This document shows, piece by piece, positions 31,418 through 44,210 of a stretch of 64,000 nucleotides of DNA. This DNA is from Thermoplasmata archaeon (GTDB lineage Archaea; Thermoplasmatota; Thermoplasmata; RBG-16-68-12), in the NCBI GenBank assembly GCA_035636595.1, contig DASPYU010000016.1:193518-257517 (forward strand). Direction: 5' to 3'. The notes under the pieces were generated by a model. It saw nothing but the letters and a program-made list of their open reading frames with translations, did not search any database and was not told where the DNA came from. Position numbers and translations under genes: made by a program. Each line of letters begins with the position of its first letter. The stretch's first letter is position 1.

Positions 31418-33070
31418 TCAGAAATCTTCGCCTTCGCCCCCGCCGTCGCCGCCTTCGCCGCCCTTGCCGGGGCCCTTGCCGCCGCCTTCGCCGGCCCTTG
31501 CCGCGATGACGTCGTCGATGCGGAGCACCATGACCGCCGCGTCCGTCGCCGAGGAGATCGCTTGGCTCCCGACCCGGATCGGCTCGATCACGTTCTCCTT
31601 CCTCATGTCGGAGACCTTGCCGCTGAAGACGTTGATTCCGGCATGCTTGTTGCCCTTCTTGTGCTCCTTCCGGAGCTCGATGAGGATGTCAATCGGGTCC
31701 AAGCCTGCGTTCTCCGCGAGGGTGCGAGGGATGACCTCGACCGCGTCTGCGAAGGCCTCGATGGCGATCTGCTCACGCCCGCCGACGCTCGAGGCGAAGT
31801 CCCGCAGTGTGAGGGCGATCTCTGTCGCGCTCGATCCACCGCCGGTGATGACCTTGCCGTCCTCGATCGCGACGGCCACGACGCTCGTCGCGTCCTCGAG
31901 GGACCGCTCGACCTCGTCCACGACGTGCTCGGTGCCTCCTCGGATCAGGATCGACATCGCCTTCGGATTCTTGCAGCCCGTGACGAAGGTCATCTCGTCC
32001 TCGCCGATCTTCTTCTCGTAGACCATCTTGGCGTAGCCGAGGTCGTCCTTCGAGAGCTCGTCGAGCTTCGTGACGACCTTGCCGCCAGTCGCCTTCGCGA
32101 GCTTCTCCATGTCCGACTTCTTGACTCGCCGTACCGCGTAGACTTCGGCCTTCGCGAGGTAGTGCTGTGCGAGGTCGTCGATGCCCTTCTGGCAGAAGAT
32201 GACCGTGGCACCGCTCTTCTTCACGGTGTCGACCATCCGCTTCAGCATCGACTCCTCTTCGTTCAGGAACGCCTGGAGCTGGGTCGGGTCCGTGATCTCG
32301 ATTTTCGCGTCGATCTCGGTCTTCTTGACCTCCAGGGCCGCGTCGACCAAGGCGATCTTCGCGTCCTTGACCTCGGACGGCATGCCGGGGTGCACGCGCT
32401 CCTTGTCGACGATGACGCCGTCGACGAGGGACGTGTCCGCAATCGAACCGCCCTGCTTCTTCACGACCTGGATGTTGTCGTCGTCCACGAAGTAGGAGTC
32501 GTCCGCGCGCTGCTCTGCGACGGTCGTGACGGCCTTCACAGAGATGTCCGCCAAGAGTTCCTTGTGGCCGCTGGACGACTTCGAGGACATCGCGGTCATC
32601 GCGACCTTCCTCAGGACGTCCGTGTCTTTGATCGAAATCTTCGTCGCAACCTTCTCGAGGACCTCGCGGGCCTTCTCCGCCGCCTGGCGGTACCCGGCGG
32701 CGATAACCGTCGGGTGGATGTTCTGCTCGATCAGATCTTCCGCCCTCTTGAGCAGTTCCCCCGCCAGGATGACGGCCGTCGTCGTGCCGTCGCCCGCTTC
32801 CTCGTCCTGGGTCTTCGCGACCTCGACGAGCATCTTCGCGGCGGGGTGCTCGATGTCGATCTCCTTGAGGATCGTCACGCCATCGTTCGTGATGACGACG
32901 TCCCCGAGGCTGTCGACGAGCATCTTGTCCATTCCCCGCGGGCCGAGCGTCGACCGCACGGCGTCCGCGACCGCTTTCGCGGCGGCGATGTTGTTGAATT
33001 GCGCTCCCTTGCCGCGATCGCGGCGCGTCCCTTCCTTCAAAACGAGTATCTGCGTTCCGGCTGGCATCAT
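31418..33070 (-). CDS. ths: thermosome subunit (group II chaperonin)
   Basis: From ATG 33070: [52 protein letters not shown]...[14 protein letters not shown]-terminal GGM-like tail. The track start 33208 adds 46 junk residues across the promoter. Confidence 0.95.
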
Positions 33071-33120
33071 GTAAATCTCTCCGAATACGGAATTCGGGAC
33101 TCTGCCTATGTTGGGACTTC

Positions 33121-33127
33121 TATATAA
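33121..33127 (-). promoter_or_regulatory. TATA box (TTATATA on minus strand) of the thermosome / heat-shock operon promoter
   Basis: cgcttatatagaag on the minus strand, about 50 nt upstream of the thermosome ATG. AT-rich island within GC-rich DNA. Confidence 0.5.
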
Positions 33128-33492
33128 GCGTAGCGATGGATGGTTTGGTCCCATTGTCGGGGGATGCTTAAGAATACGCCCTGATGCGTCCCGTAGCGGG
33201 TGATGCAAATGGACTCCAAGAATCCGGAAGGGAATCGCCCTGCCGTTCCAGGACGGATGGGGCGACCTGATCCGGTGGGCGACCTACTGGAGCGCCCGAC
33301 GAGGGATGGCGTCCATGTAGGGTGCGTGCTACTGGTGGATTCATGCCTCCCGAGCCGACTGAAAGTGCCGAGGGATGCCTCTGACCATGGAACAGGAGGG
33401 TATGGACGCGCCGGTAACTTGTCCATACTACTTGTCGATGTATTCTCAGTACAGTAAACTGTAGACAAAAAGCCTTAATACGCACGCAGAGC

Positions 33493-33858
33493 TTGCTGAG
33501 AGCATGCGTACCTGAGACTCTGGAACAAACGGAAGAGGCCTTTTGTAGCTCTTGGCATCATCCGTCCAGAAACCCAGGACGAGAACACGTTAATATCGCG
33601 CCGGGCGTCCGGGTCGCCGTGCGGAAGGTGGTTTTCCCCAAGGACTTCAAGAGCAAGGTCCACCCAACCCAGATCAAACAGGCGTGCGAAAAGATACCTC
33701 CACGGAAGAAAACTCAGCACCTGAATCGCGATGTGGTGCTGACCATGGAGATGGGTGGTCCTTTTCTCTTTCTGACGTTCCAATACCATGAACATGAAGA
33801 CGAGGAAGTACTGTACGTAAAGAACGCGAAATGGACGAAATCTAAGGGTAAACGATGA
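33493..33858 (+). CDS. hypothetical small protein (TTG start), candidate toxin partner of the downstream Panacea-domain gene
   Basis: 121-aa ORF in lower-GC DNA. No in-frame ATG near its 5' end. Its stop overlaps the next ATG by 4 nt (ATGA). No recognisable domain. Confidence 0.25.
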   Translation: MLRACVPETLEQTEEAFCSSWHHPSRNPGREHVNIAPGVRVAVRKVVFPKDFKSKVHPTQIKQACEKIPPRKKTQHLNRDVVLTMEMGGPFLFLTFQYHEHEDEEVLYVKNAKWTKSKGKR

Positions 33859-34526
33859 CCGAAAACGGAGAGTGTGAGCACGAGGGGCAGTGGATTCCAA
33901 CCACCGCGGAGTTCGAGACCGTCCGCTGGAATGGCGAACCCCTCCTTTTGCACGACGTTCCAGCCAAGTCATGCCCGCTTTGCAATGAGACCATTGTCGA
34001 CGCGGATGATGTGATCCGGGCAGAGCAGAGATGGATAGCCGGAGAGCTGGGGCTTACTCCTCGGGAGGCAAACATCCTCCTGATGTTGTATGCCCAGGGG
34101 CCTCGATTCACCGAGACCGGTTATGTGGAGGAGAAGTACCGCTTCAACAAGATGCTCTTTTCCGTCTGGAAAGAACTCGAGAAGGAAGGGTTGGGGCAAT
34201 CTTTCCTCCACGACAGCTTCCGGGCGGAGAGCCGAGGGCCCGTTCCCGACAATCTGGAAACGGATTCGAAGTCTCTGGAAAGTAAGGGCCTTACCAAGGT
34301 GCGATGGGGAGGGAAGGCGGCCAAGACGTCATTCCGGTGGGATCTCACCACTGAAGGGTGGAATCGGTCGAAGCAGCTTTACAACTTGACACCTCAGGCG
34401 ATGCGTGACGCTGTGTCGAAAGCAAAGGAAGAACTCTTCCTGCTAGACTCCACCCAGATGATGCACAAGATCCACGAACTCTACCCCGAGTACAAGAAAG
34501 CTTACCGGGAAAAGGACGAAGAATGA
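33855..34526 (+). CDS. YgiT/MqsA-type zinc-ribbon plus Panacea (DUF4065) domain protein, putative type II antitoxin
   Basis: N-terminus GECEHEG...KSCPLCNETIVDADDVIRAEQ parallels the MqsA Zn-binding domain (CxxC/H ... CxxC). Central NILLMLYAQGP...FRAESRGPVPDNL matches the DUF4065/Panacea core (KLxKLLYxAQG ... FxAWxYGPV). Confidence 0.55.
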   Translation: MTENGECEHEGQWIPTTAEFETVRWNGEPLLLHDVPAKSCPLCNETIVDADDVIRAEQRWIAGELGLTPREANILLMLYAQGPRFTETGYVEEKYRFNKMLFSVWKELEKEGLGQSFLHDSFRAESRGPVPDNLETDSKSLESKGLTKVRWGGKAAKTSFRWDLTTEGWNRSKQLYNLTPQAMRDAVSKAKEELFLLDSTQMMHKIHELYPEYKKAYREKDEE

Positions 34527-34672
34527 GGCATCCCCTTCCACCGGAGCCCTCGGCACACATGCCGGGGGTTTCCTTTTTCGCCAGCCTTTTCCCAAGCCCT
34601 GGCCGCTTCGACGGCGAGAGTGGCACCTGAGGGAATTTCGCTGATACCCGAGACTTAAGGCGGCGGATTGTT

Positions 34673-34855
34673 ATGTCCGGGTCATTGGATACCCCACCCG
34701 CAACGCTGATCGGAGCCTTGATCGGGTTCGTCGGCGGACTCATCTATGGAGCCATGACCGGCCAGTGGATCACTGGCCTAATTGGCGGGACCATTATCGG
34801 AGCCATCGTCGGGGCTGTCGTTGACGCGATAGGCAAGCAGGTCGGAGGGGCCTGA
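34673..34855 (+). CDS. glycine-zipper micro-membrane protein (GlsB/YeaQ/YmgE-like)
   Basis: 60 aa. LIGALIGFVGGLIYGAMTGQWITGLIGGTIIGAIVGAVVDAIG with serial GxxxG/A motifs. ATG with AAGGCGG 8 nt upstream. Confidence 0.4.
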   Translation: MSGSLDTPPATLIGALIGFVGGLIYGAMTGQWITGLIGGTIIGAIVGAVVDAIGKQVGGA

Positions 34856-35125
34856 CCCCCCGACGGAAGGCCCTCACACGCCCGTCCGGGGCCAACAACG
34901 TCGCAACGGAACCCCACGTGGGCGTGCGCACAATCGCACACGGGGCGGCACTACGGCAGCCCAGTTTTCTTTCCGGATCGATCCTGACGACACGGGGCCC
35001 TTTATGAACCTCGACCCGAGGAGTTGACGAGACTCTCAGGCACTCTGACGCTCAAGCTCCTAGGCTCGAGAATCTTGTGCCTGGAAGGCCGCATGAGTGA
35101 TGGGCTCGGGACTGTAAGATGGAGG

Positions 35126-35530
35126 CTATTCATCCGGTGGCAACTCGATTTCCCATGTGCAGATCTCGACCAGAGTCTTCCTTATCCGGGTGTAGCTGGG
35201 TCCCGTGACGAGACTATGGGCCGGATTGGCCGTCTCCGGCGCATGCCGGACATTCAACTCACGGTCCCACATCTGGCCCGCGGTCGTCTTGACTACTCCA
35301 GCTCGTATCTCCGGTTTCGTCGAGCGTTCGAGAGTCCTCCGTGGCGTTGAGTATCTACTCCAGTCAAACGAGATGCCTTCGTCTATGTCACGCTCCTTCC
35401 CAAAGGCGCCAGGTTGAAGCTTGTGTTCGGGCCCCTTGGTGAAGTCGTCCGGCACCCATCTGAAGAAACAGTCCGCGGGATTCTTTATTTCCTGAGGCTG
35501 AGGAGGACCCTCTGCTAGCTCGTTAGCCAA
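35126..35530 (-). CDS. hypothetical protein (island ORF C) with HEPN-like Rx5H motif
   Basis: 134-aa ORF starting at TTG 16 nt before ORF B's stop. Same frame as ORF A. Contains RELNVRH and GISFDWSRYSTP. Confidence 0.3.
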   Translation of the reverse strand: MANELAEGPPQPQEIKNPADCFFRWVPDDFTKGPEHKLQPGAFGKERDIDEGISFDWSRYSTPRRTLERSTKPEIRAGVVKTTAGQMWDRELNVRHAPETANPAHSLVTGPSYTRIRKTLVEICTWEIELPPDE

Positions 35531-36069
35531 CTCACAAGACCTCGGTTCGGCTGGGTTGGATCGACGAGAGTACCATCGAATCTACCTCTGTCCTTACCGT
35601 CGCCTGCGAACTCCACTGGAAGTTTGGGGTCGGCCGGAATGTTGACAAGCAGGTTCAGATTTGGAAGATCCCAGAAAATGTCAATGCTCCCTTGCGGCCC
35701 CGGTCCGATCTCAGGCAGGGGCATGGGTTCGACGTTAAGACGTAGGTATTCCTGCCATTGGAGCCTCACGAACGCGATTGCCCTGTCCAGGGTGTCCTTG
35801 GAATAGCGAGGCGACCCCCGCCCGTCGAAGTTGTCCTTGAGGCCTAGGAGCCATTTGGCATCATCGATGATCCCGGCAAGCTTGTCGGACACAGCTGCGA
35901 ACTCGAGCTGCACCCCGTCCCGGTGCCGCTCCACGAGTTGTTCCAGCAGCGGCCGCGGCCTGACCGTATGCTGCGGCGGCCAAAGGTTGCGGGACTGAAA
36001 GTGCTGACGGTCCATGCAGGGCCACATCGGAATAGTCTTGCCATTAGAGTTCGAGAACGTTGATACCAC
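35515..36069 (-). CDS. hypothetical protein (island ORF B); possibly the out-of-frame middle segment of a disrupted larger gene
   Basis: 184-aa ORF that begins at GTG inside ORF A's last 26 nt. First ATG is 14 codons in. Its frame differs from A and C, which share a frame. Confidence 0.3.
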   Translation of the reverse strand: MVSTFSNSNGKTIPMWPCMDRQHFQSRNLWPPQHTVRPRPLLEQLVERHRDGVQLEFAAVSDKLAGIIDDAKWLLGLKDNFDGRGSPRYSKDTLDRAIAFVRLQWQEYLRLNVEPMPLPEIGPGPQGSIDIFWDLPNLNLLVNIPADPKLPVEFAGDGKDRGRFDGTLVDPTQPNRGLVSWLTS

Positions 36070-36724
36070 CTTCTCGCGCTGATGCCGTGAGACTTGCCTC
36101 CTTGTGAGTCGCCCTATCGAGCAACTTCTTCAGTTCCACGATGTCAGTACTGTCGAGAGCCACGAAGAAGTCCTTTGTCGTTTCCTCTCCATTCTCATGG
36201 AAGGTAATTTTCGCTTGATGCACGACGACAGCTGCCAACGGTCCCTTGTCCACATCTCTGCCAAATACTGGTCGTAGATCGGTCAGGATTCTCGCTGTGC
36301 AGAATACGTGATTCTGCTCGGACCGGACCTGGCTGGCTTTCGCGCTTACCCCAAGTGTGTCATCGAGTGAGAGGACTTGCGTAAGGTACGTCTTGAATTC
36401 GTTCCAGTTCACATCCTTCGTCGGCAGTTCGGGGTCTTTGGAGGCCTGAATTGTGTCGCATACATCCGCCGCAAACTTTTCCGTTGGATCCCCAGCGATA
36501 TCCATGGACTCATAGAGTCCAGCCAAAAGCCGGAATAGGCCATCCGCATCCGCTTTGGAAGCACCGGCCTTTTTTACCCACGCAGTAACGAAGCTGCGAC
36601 CGAGGAGGCTAGGCTTTGCTTCCTTCAGCACATCAAAGAGTTCCCTACGCTCCTTCTGAGAGAACCGAAGGAGCTGCGCGAGCACACGCTTCTGTTGTTC
36701 GGGAATTCCGAGACCGTCGGGCAT
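36044..36724 (-). CDS. hypothetical protein (island ORF A)
   Basis: About 226 aa from ATG 36724 (MPDGLGIPEQQKRVLAQLL...). Lower-GC codon usage. No recognisable domain. Its stop is overlapped by ORF B. Confidence 0.4.
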   Translation of the reverse strand: MPDGLGIPEQQKRVLAQLLRFSQKERRELFDVLKEAKPSLLGRSFVTAWVKKAGASKADADGLFRLLAGLYESMDIAGDPTEKFAADVCDTIQASKDPELPTKDVNWNEFKTYLTQVLSLDDTLGVSAKASQVRSEQNHVFCTARILTDLRPVFGRDVDKGPLAAVVVHQAKITFHENGEETTKDFFVALDSTDIVELKKLLDRATHKEASLTASAREGGINVLEL

Positions 36725-37017
36725 CGCGATCACGCCACGGCGGCTCTGATAGATTTGTTGTTCGCACGTACAAGAATGAATCTAGTGGTGACCAGAGAGC
36801 TGTCCCCTTCCCGGACGCAGGCGTCGTCCTTCCCCAGCAAGGACCCTTCCGAATCGACTATTGGATTTAAGGGTTTTGCCAAGGGGCGTCAAACCTTGCC
36901 GCTGGACGACCATGCACCTTAAGTTAACAAAACCCGCGCACCAGGTTTGACATTAGGAATCAGTCCTAAAGCGGCCACACCCGTCGCAATCCTTTGGTTT
37001 TGGAGTGGCAGATGGGC

Positions 37018-37464
37018 TCAGCTACCTGGAACGTACCATGACTGAACGTTCGTGAAACCCCACCGGACGAGCACGCTCTGCGCGACAGCGTAGCAACTTT
37101 CCGGCACGAGCAGCATGACCTTCGCTCCAGAGCTAACGTAGTCTCGTAACTGGCCGCGCGTGTGATCGTTGTCCAAATCCGCGCACGTCTTCACTTCGCC
37201 CATGACCCAAGCATTCCCCGGACCCAGCGCGGTGAGATCGGGAATCGATCCGCCGGCAGTTTGTCGTGGTTTGTTTGGAATCTCGGGCAAGGCGGCTGAG
37301 ATTTGAGTATATCCCCTTCCGCGTAGGGTTTCGACCCATCCGCGAAGCATACGGTCGTGTTGTTCCTGATCCGTCGAAAAAACCATGAGAAATCCGGCCT
37401 CGACTATCTCAGAGGGTCTGAGGCACATACTTAACTCTTTTCGGCGTTCGTTCCGATTGTTCAT
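37018..37464 (-). CDS. Hjc-type Holliday-junction-resolvase-like PD-(D/E)xK nuclease
   Basis: HDRMLRGWVETLRGRGY...IPDLTALGPGNAWVMGEVKTC...RGQLRDYVSSGAKVMLLVPE aligns with the Hjc pattern (ERELxKxLxxxGF...DLVA...IEVK...GRLIEF...VLAVKF). ATG 37464. Track start is TTG 37476. GC about 56%, versus about 67% for flanking genes. Confidence 0.45.
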   Translation of the reverse strand: MNNRNERRKELSMCLRPSEIVEAGFLMVFSTDQEQHDRMLRGWVETLRGRGYTQISAALPEIPNKPRQTAGGSIPDLTALGPGNAWVMGEVKTCADLDNDHTRGQLRDYVSSGAKVMLLVPESCYAVAQSVLVRWGFTNVQSWYVPGS

Positions 37465-37593
37465 CCGGATAACCAATCACCCAGTCAGTCCCCCGCGAGG
37501 GGACAGCTGGTCCATCCCCCGTTGATGAGACAACCTGATGGATTACCGCGCATGTGGAAAATCGGCGCCGTCCTCTCGCACGCGGTACCATAA

Positions 37594-37601
37594 TTCTATA
37601 T
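37594..37601 (+). promoter_or_regulatory. TATA box upstream of the IMPase-NADK operon
   Basis: ttctatat 24 nt upstream of GTG 37625. Leaderless-type spacing. Confidence 0.4.
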
Positions 37602-44113: not shown

Positions 44114-44210
44114 GCCTCAACGAACTCGCAGATGCGCTTAGGGTTTTCGACGGCAGGCCAACCCACCGCAAGATTATTACGAGCCCACGAATTCGCTGCG
44201 GAGCACGCGT

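Follow-up and report, generated by a model that had tools for sequence, protein, structure and literature searches.

We describe a two-gene locus in a Thermoplasmata archaeon genome that probably (at roughly 60%) constitutes a type II toxin–antitoxin (TA)-like module combining features of the MqsRA and PanAT systems. The locus lies within a window of 64,000 nucleotides, the whole stretch of DNA that we analyzed. A small basic protein, the putative toxin, is encoded immediately ahead of an acidic 223-aa protein, the putative antitoxin (33855..34526, + strand). The initial annotation had proposed a TA module around the larger gene, with one candidate toxin on either side. Several type II hallmarks support the proposal: a basic small protein next to an acidic large one, residence in a low-GC island, and relatives found in TA, restriction, integrase, or viral contexts. 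One part that does not stand is the downstream partner, a glycine-zipper peptide.

Layout and conservation of the locus

Three open reading frames (ORFs) on the + strand make up the region: 33493..33858 (121 aa, TTG start), 33855..34526 (223 aa, ATG start), and 34673..34855 (60 aa). Re-reading the sequence confirmed these coordinates and starts as annotated, together with the ATGA overlap, in which the upstream stop shares nucleotides with the ATG of the 223-aa gene, and the 146 nt between that gene and the 60-aa ORF. The motifs NILLMLYAQGP and FRAESRGPVPDNL, which had been quoted for the 223-aa protein, are both present in it.

The upstream gene is shorter than its reading frame. It had been taken as a 121-aa ORF with a TTG start; the frame is indeed open and overlapping, but that length does not hold. 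We rejected the TTG version: nothing in the related loci corresponds to its first 42 codons, window positions 33517-33626 are missing from L011, a locus of 85% identity, and gene callers assign 79 aa to relatives at 72–94% identity. The conserved part of the ORF therefore begins at GTG 33619 (33619..33858, + strand, 79 aa) or at GTG 33628 (76 aa).

Candidate expression signals bracket the pair. An upstream block carrying a TATA-like CCTTAATA (33440..33516, + strand) shares 80% identity with positions 820-896 of L011 over 77 nt, while the flanking non-coding DNA outside the block is unrelated between the two loci. The comparison marks this block as a candidate promoter or operator of the pair. 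A TATA-like box, TTAATAT (33589..33595, + strand), was also read from the sequence ~27 nt upstream of GTG 33619, a spacing that would fit a leaderless archaeal transcript; the box falls within the 110-nt stretch missing from L011. Seventeen nucleotides past the stop of the 223-aa gene is a terminator-like hairpin with a 13-bp stem followed by CTTTTT (34543..34582, + strand), also picked up as inverted repeat I1, which likely marks the 3' end of a two-gene unit. A sigma-70 promoter scan was uninformative in this archaeal setting. An Rfam search of 33000-37600 returned no match at E≤1, and the predicted RNA fold of 34527-34960 was not unusual (z = −1.25).

The pair sits in a 4.3-kb low-GC island of the window. 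This island was probably acquired horizontally by the Thermoplasmata genome; no convincing direct repeats were found at its flanks.

Neighborhood comparison bears out the suggested pairing of the 223-aa gene with the ORF immediately upstream. Directly ahead of the large gene there is a homologue of the small ORF in each of the 11 distinct loci of the window’s type (HMM E 1e-6 to 1e-36), namely the window itself, L011, L034, L035, L012/13, L014, L015, L004-6, L007, L001-3, and L032. Across these loci, identity of the large protein falls to 38%, and the two genes overlap or stand within ~40 nt of each other. In eighteen more loci, most of them metagenomic and two of them in Promethearchaeota MAGs, an unalignable small ORF of a second type occupies the same position. 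A small ORF is found upstream in every related locus that has a full-length large gene and sufficient upstream sequence. The only locus without one is L033, where the large gene is N-terminally truncated; L001-3 carry a truncated small gene.

The surroundings of several of these loci include defense and mobility functions. L001 is surrounded by MazE-PIN, nucleotidyltransferase, and RelA_SpoT genes, and a tyrosine integrase adjoins L004. An Eco57I-type restriction gene adjoins L033, a DUF262-like gene adjoins L034, and L032 is an IMG/VR viral contig.

Domains of the putative antitoxin

The 223-aa protein has a 100% identical counterpart in a Thermoplasmata MAG, and 278 representatives make up its family at E≤1e-3. 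Searches of Pfam (E≤1), PADLOC, and PHROGs returned nothing for it, and NCBIfam returned only the YgiT finger. Its AF2 model (pLDDT 87.7) and its relatives divide it into three parts.

Residues 1-48 (33855..33998, + strand) resemble the zinc ribbon of MqsA/YgiT. The presence of such a ribbon, claimed in the initial annotation, is upheld by a narrow margin: the NCBIfam model TIGR03831 (YgiT_finger) matches residues 21-51 with 20.5 bits (E 4.4e-4), where its cutoff is 20.2. C7-x-H9 and C40-P-L-C43 supply the ligands. In the model, two long strands (14-23 and 29-39) lead into the CPLC knuckle, and Foldseek places MqsA (3gn5_A) at rank 12 (E 0.017). PF15731 is matched weakly by three family members, the window protein not being among them. 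Below about 47% identity, relatives no longer keep the zinc ligands, and none of the four survives in most of the family.

The central part (approximately residues 66-178; 34050..34388, + strand) is a Panacea-like winged-helix core resembling the C-terminal domain of DarG, and contains the motifs RFNKMLF..W, RGPVP, and LESKGL. It had been assigned to DUF4065, for which the Pfam model is PF13274 (gathering score 25.7 bits). The window protein itself has no match to this model even at E≤1; the assignment is instead carried by its relatives and by its predicted fold. Of 46 full-length relatives, 15 match PF13274 (SocA_Panacea) at E≤1 (best 2.9e-6), more than match any other Pfam family; PadR has seven. 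Most of these matches fall under the gathering score. PF13274 is also the commonest family among distant profile matches (18/54), and the L010 homologue covers model positions 2-109 of 113 with 21.3 bits (E 5.3e-4). On the structural side, two methods, one of them Foldseek (E 2.3e-4, with TM 0.51 on the target), rank the DarG C-terminal domain (7yk3_D) first. PMC13621843 describes DUF4065 proteins as homologues of this domain. The core also resembles the DNA-binding winged helices of MarR and PadR proteins, which are the sole sequence-level PDB matches of the large protein. To our knowledge, the toxin-binding C-terminal domain of DarG (7YK3) is the only Panacea relative with a solved structure. 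We find that the Panacea assignment holds indirectly and at superfamily level, through relatives and fold similarity to DarG.

The protein ends in C-terminal helices and an acidic tail (residues 181-223; 34395..34523, + strand) with the conserved motif H..YPEYKK.Y.E.D.E. H207, P211, and K191 vary little or not at all, and the YPEY ending recurs in distant relatives of ~150 aa.

The putative toxin

The small protein (~9 kDa) has a pI of 9.8, compared with 5.2 for its large partner. The initial annotation had called it unrecognizable, and at the level of sequence this is correct: we found no match in Pfam, NCBIfam, PADLOC, PHROG, or PDB, and profile searches of PDB and Pfam gave chance-level hits only. 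Alignment by hhalign to E. coli RelE and MqsR likewise gave probabilities below 1%. Its AF2 model (pLDDT 81), however, has a beta-alpha-beta-beta-beta order resembling RelE, ParE, and BrnT, and the fold neighbors of the model are overwhelmingly toxins.

This RelE-like fold must be taken as provisional for the window’s type, because the alignment behind the model mixes the two small-protein types, which neither HMM nor hhalign links. With a separate HMM for each type, the best cross-match in a database of 2375 ORFs had an E of 0.036, and hhalign gave a probability of 0.4%, so homology between the types is not shown. The small-protein alignments contain no invariant column and single out no catalytic residues. 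In the same alignments, nearly all members keep a basic residue where the last strand ends.

Relationship to known systems and competing explanations

The locus shares features with PanAT systems, which are defined by a Panacea/DUF4065 (PF13274) antitoxin (Kurata et al. 2022; PMC8832971). Relatives of the large protein match PF13274, the pair is bicistronic with a small putative toxin, and members of the family occur in archaea as well as on mobile or viral DNA. As in some Panacea pairs, the putative toxin gene precedes its partner, and its product would, judging from the model, be a RelE-superfamily member in a broad sense. There are also clear differences. The window protein fails to register against PF13274, it has the additional conserved tail, and no PanT or other toxin family described so far resembles the small protein in sequence. 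Furthermore, the N-terminal extension here is an MqsA/YgiT-type zinc ribbon, whereas the widespread extensions described for Panacea proteins are helix-turn-helix and PAD1 only, with no mention of zinc (PMC8832971).

The resemblance to MqsRA (E. coli YgiU/YgiT; 3GN5, 3HI2) lies in gene order and in the ribbon. In both systems, the toxin gene precedes the antitoxin gene, and the antitoxin begins with a four-ligand zinc ribbon, recognized here by TIGR03831. The second and third ligands are separated by 31 residues in the 223-aa protein (H9 to C40), and MqsA has the same spacing (C6 to C37). The ribbon of MqsA binds the toxin MqsR directly, as the PDB title of 3hi2 also states. Beyond the ribbon, the two diverge: MqsA ends in a DNA-binding XRE helix-turn-helix rather than in a Panacea-like winged helix, and the MqsA family profile TIGR03830 gives 12.4 bits, well under its cutoff of 61.8. 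One ligand here is a histidine, and most of the family has no ligands at all. MqsR itself has 98 aa, compared with 79 aa for the small protein, and the two share no sequence similarity.

Similarity to RelE, ParE, and BrnT (7VD7, 3U97, 9G12, 8C24) rests on the predicted beta-alpha-beta-beta-beta core. Like those toxins, the small protein is small, basic, and encoded beside an acidic partner, with a basic residue ending its last strand. It differs from RelE and ParE in having no Pfam or NCBIfam match, no invariant candidate catalytic residues, and a single helix in its model, where RelE and ParE usually have two.

Together, these comparisons suggest how the pair might operate. The small protein would be the growth-inhibiting component, most likely a nuclease directed at RNA or the ribosome or, less probably, an enzyme poison like ParE. 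The gene downstream would be translationally coupled to it and encode the acidic antitoxin, with its MqsA-like ribbon (C-x-H...C-x2-C), a winged helix of the Panacea/DarG C-terminal type, and a helical acidic tail. Domains of the Panacea/DarG C-terminal class neutralize many toxins through direct binding. The antitoxin is predicted to keep its toxin inactive by binding it directly, and the winged helix may in addition repress the promoter of its own operon.

Other explanations of the locus are less probable. The large protein could be a MarR/PadR-type regulator with an added zinc ribbon, and the small one a harmless co-regulator or nucleic-acid-binding partner. This reading would account for the MarR and PadR proteins found by sequence in PDB, for the small protein having no conserved catalytic residues, and for the lack of a PADLOC match. 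We nevertheless regard it as unlikely. The domain that both structural methods rank first binds a toxin, PF13274 outnumbers PadR among family matches, and the small protein’s fold neighbors, as far as its model can be relied upon, are toxins. The large protein also departs from ordinary MarR and PadR regulators in its ribbon, in its strict coupling to a small upstream gene, and in a long insertion with RFNKMLF..W and RGPVP that is typical of Panacea-like proteins. Finally, the surroundings are of TA, restriction, integrase, or viral kind, and decayed copies such as the broken small gene of L001-3 and the truncated, partnerless large gene of L033 are expected of addiction-type modules. Two further roles seem quite improbable. 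One makes the large protein a type VI proteolytic adaptor that hands the small protein to a protease instead of sequestering it, as does SocA, which has a domain of the same class (PMC8832971); the other makes the small protein a non-toxic, degenerate relic of the RelE fold. The conserved and exposed acidic tail could serve an adaptor as a recognition tag, and the small protein's lack of conserved catalytic residues would suit a relic. An adaptor role fits poorly with the MqsA-type ribbon, which in MqsA itself binds the toxin directly (title of 3hi2). The tested PanA proteins, moreover, are reported to fit direct, type II neutralization best (PMC8832971). A relic, for its part, would not be expected to be kept as strictly over such deep divergence as the small gene has been.

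The 60-aa glycine-zipper ORF (34673..34855, + strand) is very improbable as a component of the module. It had been put forward as a membrane-depolarizing toxin neutralized by the 223-aa protein, and could act alone or as a third component. Its glycine-zipper matches in Pfam are sub-threshold (Gly-zipper_OmpA, 21.7 bits vs 27), and a related sequence does occur 76 nt downstream of the large gene in L001-3, an otherwise non-syntenic Thermoplasmata locus. That sole other copy is broken, by indels that disrupt the frame and by an in-frame stop after ~34 codons, whereas the large gene beside it is intact; its BLAST statistics are identical in three independent assemblies. No copy of the ORF follows the large gene in the two closest loci, L011 (85% identity) and L034 (76%), nor in L035, L012, L004, L007, L032, or any second-type locus. 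In the window, the 13-bp hairpin and its T-run stand between the ORF and the pair. We therefore rejected it as a partner, given the terminator-like hairpin and the lack of conserved co-occurrence with the antitoxin gene.

The preferred TA reading carries consequences for the diversity of these systems, although the novelty of the pairing is more modest than initially claimed. The fusion of a ribbon to a Panacea-like core would be a new feature. The pairing itself is less new, because the small-protein model resembles RelE, ParE, and BrnT; MqsR-like toxins are the commonest recognized Panacea partners, and ParE is likewise a reported partner (PMC8832971). With the promiscuity of Panacea antitoxins and their RelE-superfamily partners already known, the conceptual gain is limited. 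If functional, the pair would add a family of several hundred representatives, show that a Panacea-type neutralizer can be combined with the toxin-binding ribbon of MqsA, and make a minimal 76-79-aa RelE-fold protein available for study. Both proteins largely escape Pfam, NCBIfam, PADLOC, and PHROGs, the YgiT finger of the large one being the exception.

Archaeal TA systems are far less charted than bacterial ones. A broader and more doubtful proposal, which we offer tentatively, is that the locus represents an undescribed archaeal TA superfamily spanning Thermoplasmata, Methanoperedens, Promethearchaeota (Asgard), and at least one viral contig. In this proposal, a ribbon–Panacea antitoxin would form an evolutionary bridge between MqsRA and PanAT, and would face a new, minimal toxin family of the RelE fold or, in its longer versions, two toxins including a HicA-like one. 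In L010, L017, L021, and L029 (one Promethearchaeota MAG included), the antitoxin is extended at its C-terminus and a HicA-like gene comes next. The antitoxin may therefore be a hub that neutralizes two unrelated toxins.

A candidate TA module in a low-GC island

The large gene (33855..34526, + strand, 223 aa) and the small gene directly upstream of it are best read as a type II toxin-antitoxin (TA) module in which the toxin gene comes first and whose functional steps we infer throughout. We put the probability that this is a real TA pair at roughly 0.6. It is an archaeal, unannotated module in which MqsA-type and Panacea-type parts form a chimera, accompanied by a minimal putative toxin of predicted RelE fold. 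The initial annotation had proposed a Panacea-domain TA module whose antitoxin carries an MqsA-like zinc ribbon; its observation is partly confirmed and its interpretation partly supported. An ORF listing and a reading of the sequence recover its three ORFs exactly: an upstream ORF of 121 aa with a TTG start (33493..33858, +), the large gene, whose ATG and the stop of the upstream ORF overlap in ATGA, and a 60-aa glycine-zipper ORF (34673..34855, +) 146 nt beyond the large gene.

The acidic large protein would act as the antitoxin, neutralising the small basic protein of predicted RelE fold, the putative toxin, through direct binding. The zinc-ribbon domain of MqsA is the part that holds MqsR, as in the title of entry 3hi2. 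For Panacea domains, neutralisation through complex formation has been reported (PMC8832971). Thus, the toxin could be contacted by the zinc ribbon, by the Panacea domain, or by both. The winged helix might have a further role in autoregulation.

The module lies within a low-GC island of ~4.3 kb (33200-37500; G+C 54-60% versus 65-68% in the flanks), a signature of horizontal acquisition. Neither direct repeats nor a tRNA were found at its borders; the nearest tRNA-Leu is at 44210. Immediately upstream, a thermosome gene occupies the opposite strand, so the archaeal origin is correct. The mechanical call for this ORF (31418-33208, -) has a TTG start and ~46 extra residues before [14 protein letters not shown], and the true start is probably the internal Met there. 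On the other flank, the ORFs, judged by eye from their sequences, look like housekeeping genes (inositol-monophosphatase-like and NAD-kinase-like). The island also holds four minus-strand ORFs (35126-37476; 229, 184, 134 and 152 aa), the first three overlapping by 26 and 16 nt in an operon-like arrangement. These have no match in Pfam, NCBIfam, PADLOC or PHROGs and no counterpart in related loci; they could represent a further unannotated cassette of mobile or defence type.

Domain assignment of the 223-aa protein

At superfamily level, we assign the N-terminus of the large protein to the zinc ribbons of MqsA/YgiT type. The NCBIfam model TIGR03831 (YgiT_finger) matches residues 21-51 with 20.5 bits (E 4.4e-4), barely over its curated cutoff of 20.2, which confirms the ribbon named in the initial annotation by a narrow margin. 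The full MqsA family model TIGR03830 gives only 12.4 bits against a cutoff of 61.8. The putative zinc ligands, C7-x-H9 and C40-P-L-C43, are retained in the closest relatives. They vary in relatives at ~47-53% identity (CxC, or H-x-x-C with CxxC) and are gone from more distant members, where the two-strand N-domain is still present.

The core belongs, as a divergent member, to the Panacea/DarG-C-terminal branch of the winged-helix domains; this too is a superfamily-level placement, not formal PF13274 membership. No Pfam family matches the 223-aa protein at E<=1, and therefore the HMMER comparison with PF13274 (DUF4065) that was to support the Panacea claim fails for this sequence. There is nothing in PADLOC or PHROGs either. 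A Thermoplasmata archaeon MAG encodes a hypothetical protein with 100% identity to it. The proposed ribbon-Panacea fusion holds marginally for the ribbon and, for the core, at superfamily level through relatives and predicted structure. PF13274 is the commonest family among full-length members, matched by 15 of 46 at E<=1 (best 2.9e-6) against 7 for PadR; three of the 46 weakly match MqsA_antitoxin. The homologue at locus L010 covers PF13274 model positions 2-109 of 113 (E 5.3e-4). Distant profile matches, mostly ~150 aa, match PF13274 in 18 of 54 cases (best 8.3e-9), the others matching DUF4364 or PadR. DUF4065 proteins are stated to be homologous to the DarG C-terminal domain (PMC13621843, 2026).

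The AF2 model (pLDDT 87.7, pTM 0.83) comprises two long N-terminal strands, the CPLC knuckle, a helix, the winged-helix core and three C-terminal helices. Foldseek places MqsA (3gn5_A) at rank 12 (E 0.017).

A word-indexed search with the protein returned 18 proteins; with a 17-sequence profile, the cluster representatives number 278 at E<=1e-3, of them 43 at E<=1e-30. Conservation is strong in the core (KYRFNKMLF..W, RGPVP, LE.KGL, LT..G) and extends to the C-terminus (H..YPEYKK.Y.E.D.E). In some distant relatives (P0097, P0123, P0138 and P0162), the winged-helix and YPEY-tail region forms the C-terminal end of a longer protein, with a uracil-DNA-glycosylase domain besides in P0097. Type I restriction specificity (Methylase_S) domains are present in three of the 54 distant matches, probably the three ~575-aa proteins.

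The partner gene

We collected the DNA around relatives from genome, metagenome and viral contigs and from look-ups of individual proteins. Wherever the large gene is full-length and sufficient upstream sequence is available, a small ORF precedes it on the same strand and overlaps it or stops within ~40 nt of it. The expected conservation of the gene neighbourhood was found for this upstream ORF. It was one of the two candidates first put forward, but its length of 121 aa and TTG start are rejected. The first 42 codons have no counterpart in any related locus, gene callers predict a length of 79 aa for relatives, and L011, the locus with an 85% identical large protein, lacks window positions 33517-33626 and shows a stop codon a short way upstream. 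The gene therefore begins at GTG 33619 or at GTG 33628, the latter aligning with the GTG of L011, and encodes 79 or 76 aa, respectively. A conserved 77-nt block with a TATA-like element lies upstream of the operon. The 110-nt stretch missing from L011 lies between this block and the small gene, and includes a separate TATA-like element, TTAATAT, 27 nt ahead of GTG 33619.

The glycine-zipper peptide, the other toxin candidate originally put forward, is not a conserved partner. A 13-bp hairpin followed by CTTTTT (34543-34582) begins 17 nt past the large-gene stop, and neither the closest homologues nor most other loci have a counterpart of the peptide downstream. The sole exception is the grouped locus L001-3, where a block at the same relative position is 78% identical over 223 nt, with identical BLAST statistics from three independent assemblies. 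Indels of 1, 1, 1, 1 and 4 nt break its frame, and an in-frame stop comes after ~34 codons. This similarity (window 34694-34915, L001 5730-5942) continues ~60 nt past the stop codon in an otherwise non-syntenic locus. As DNA, the block is better conserved than the adjoining gene pair (43% protein identity). The region has no Rfam match and an ordinary predicted fold energy.

The two proteins differ in charge: the small one has a pI of 9.8 (basic), the large one a pI of 5.2 (acidic). The claim of an unrecognisable toxin holds for sequence, as the small protein matches no family or solved structure in Pfam, NCBIfam or PDB, but probably not for the predicted fold, which resembles the RelE type. 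The AF2 model (pLDDT 81.4) has the order beta-alpha-beta-beta-beta. Entries tabulated for it, with their values, are the toxin of a Salmonella TA complex (7vd7_A, 6.6), BrnT (3u97_A, 5.9), RelE (9g12_B, 5.1), PrpT (7ycs_A, 5.1), HigB2 (5mje_A, 5.0), ParE1 (8c24_B, 4.7), MqsR (3hi2_D, 4.4) and YoeB (2a6q_E, 4.2). The underlying alignment consists mostly of second-type sequences; thus, the RelE-type fold is provisional for the window type.

There are two small-protein types. The window type (HMM E 1e-6 to 1e-36) occurs at 11 distinct loci (window, L011, L034, L035, L012/13, L014, L015, L004-6, L007, L001-3 and L032), whose carriers include Thermoplasmata, Methanoperedens and one IMG/VR contig. 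The second type (85-100 aa) occupies the same position at 18 loci, including two Promethearchaeota MAGs and a MAG labelled Patescibacteria. Homology between the types was not detected (best cross-HMM match E 0.036 among 2375 ORFs; hhalign probability 0.4%). Features common to both are a hydrophobic pattern, an acidic turn ahead of the final strand, and a tail that is basic. Second-type modules in MAGs labelled 'Patescibacteria group bacterium' (L009 and P0179), in a family otherwise archaeal, point to either lateral transfer or mis-binning.

Known systems and variation among relatives

The module would work like both PanAT and MqsRA, and is formally a member of neither: the window protein falls outside PF13274 for the former and TIGR03830 for the latter. 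The PanA/PanT-type pairing is less new than first suggested, as MqsR-like toxins are already reported as the commonest recognised Panacea partners (PMC8832971). In that paper, the only widespread N-terminal extensions are helix-turn-helix and PAD1, and the word zinc is absent from the main text. A full-text literature search combining Panacea, MqsA and zinc returned only one general review. According to the Panacea paper, an earlier book chapter (Kaldalu et al. 2013) had pointed to DUF4065 as an alternative MqsR antitoxin; a ribbon-DUF4065 fusion may already be noted in that chapter.

Related loci differ in their surroundings. L001-3 is surrounded by MazE-PIN, nucleotidyltransferase and RelA_SpoT genes, L004-6 adjoins a tyrosine integrase, and L033 an Eco57I-type restriction-modification gene. 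The ORF after L034 is read as DUF262-like, from motifs only. The pair also occurs on a 17.9-kb IMG/VR viral contig (L032, 2733-5596), where a 533-aa ORF follows it.

Decay is seen in some copies. In L001 (4751-4924), and also in L002 and L003, an early stop cuts the small gene to 57 aa, compared with 75-80 aa in the close relatives P0191 and P0192; the large gene is intact. In L033 (3001-3468), the large protein is 155 aa long and lacks the zinc-ribbon N-domain; no small ORF precedes it, and the copy has probably decayed.

Other copies are extended. At L010 (3950-5259), L017, L021 and L029, a Promethearchaeota MAG among them, the large protein has ~100 extra C-terminal aa. A third gene (99-103 aa) overlaps the large gene by 4 nt in the first three and lies close behind in L029. 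That of L010 weakly matches HicA_toxin (E 6.3e-4; 20.2 bits versus a cutoff of 27), and the antitoxin of this three-gene version may serve two toxins. At L024 (1026-1982), the C-terminal extension is DUF5678 (24.6 bits versus a cutoff of 23.2).
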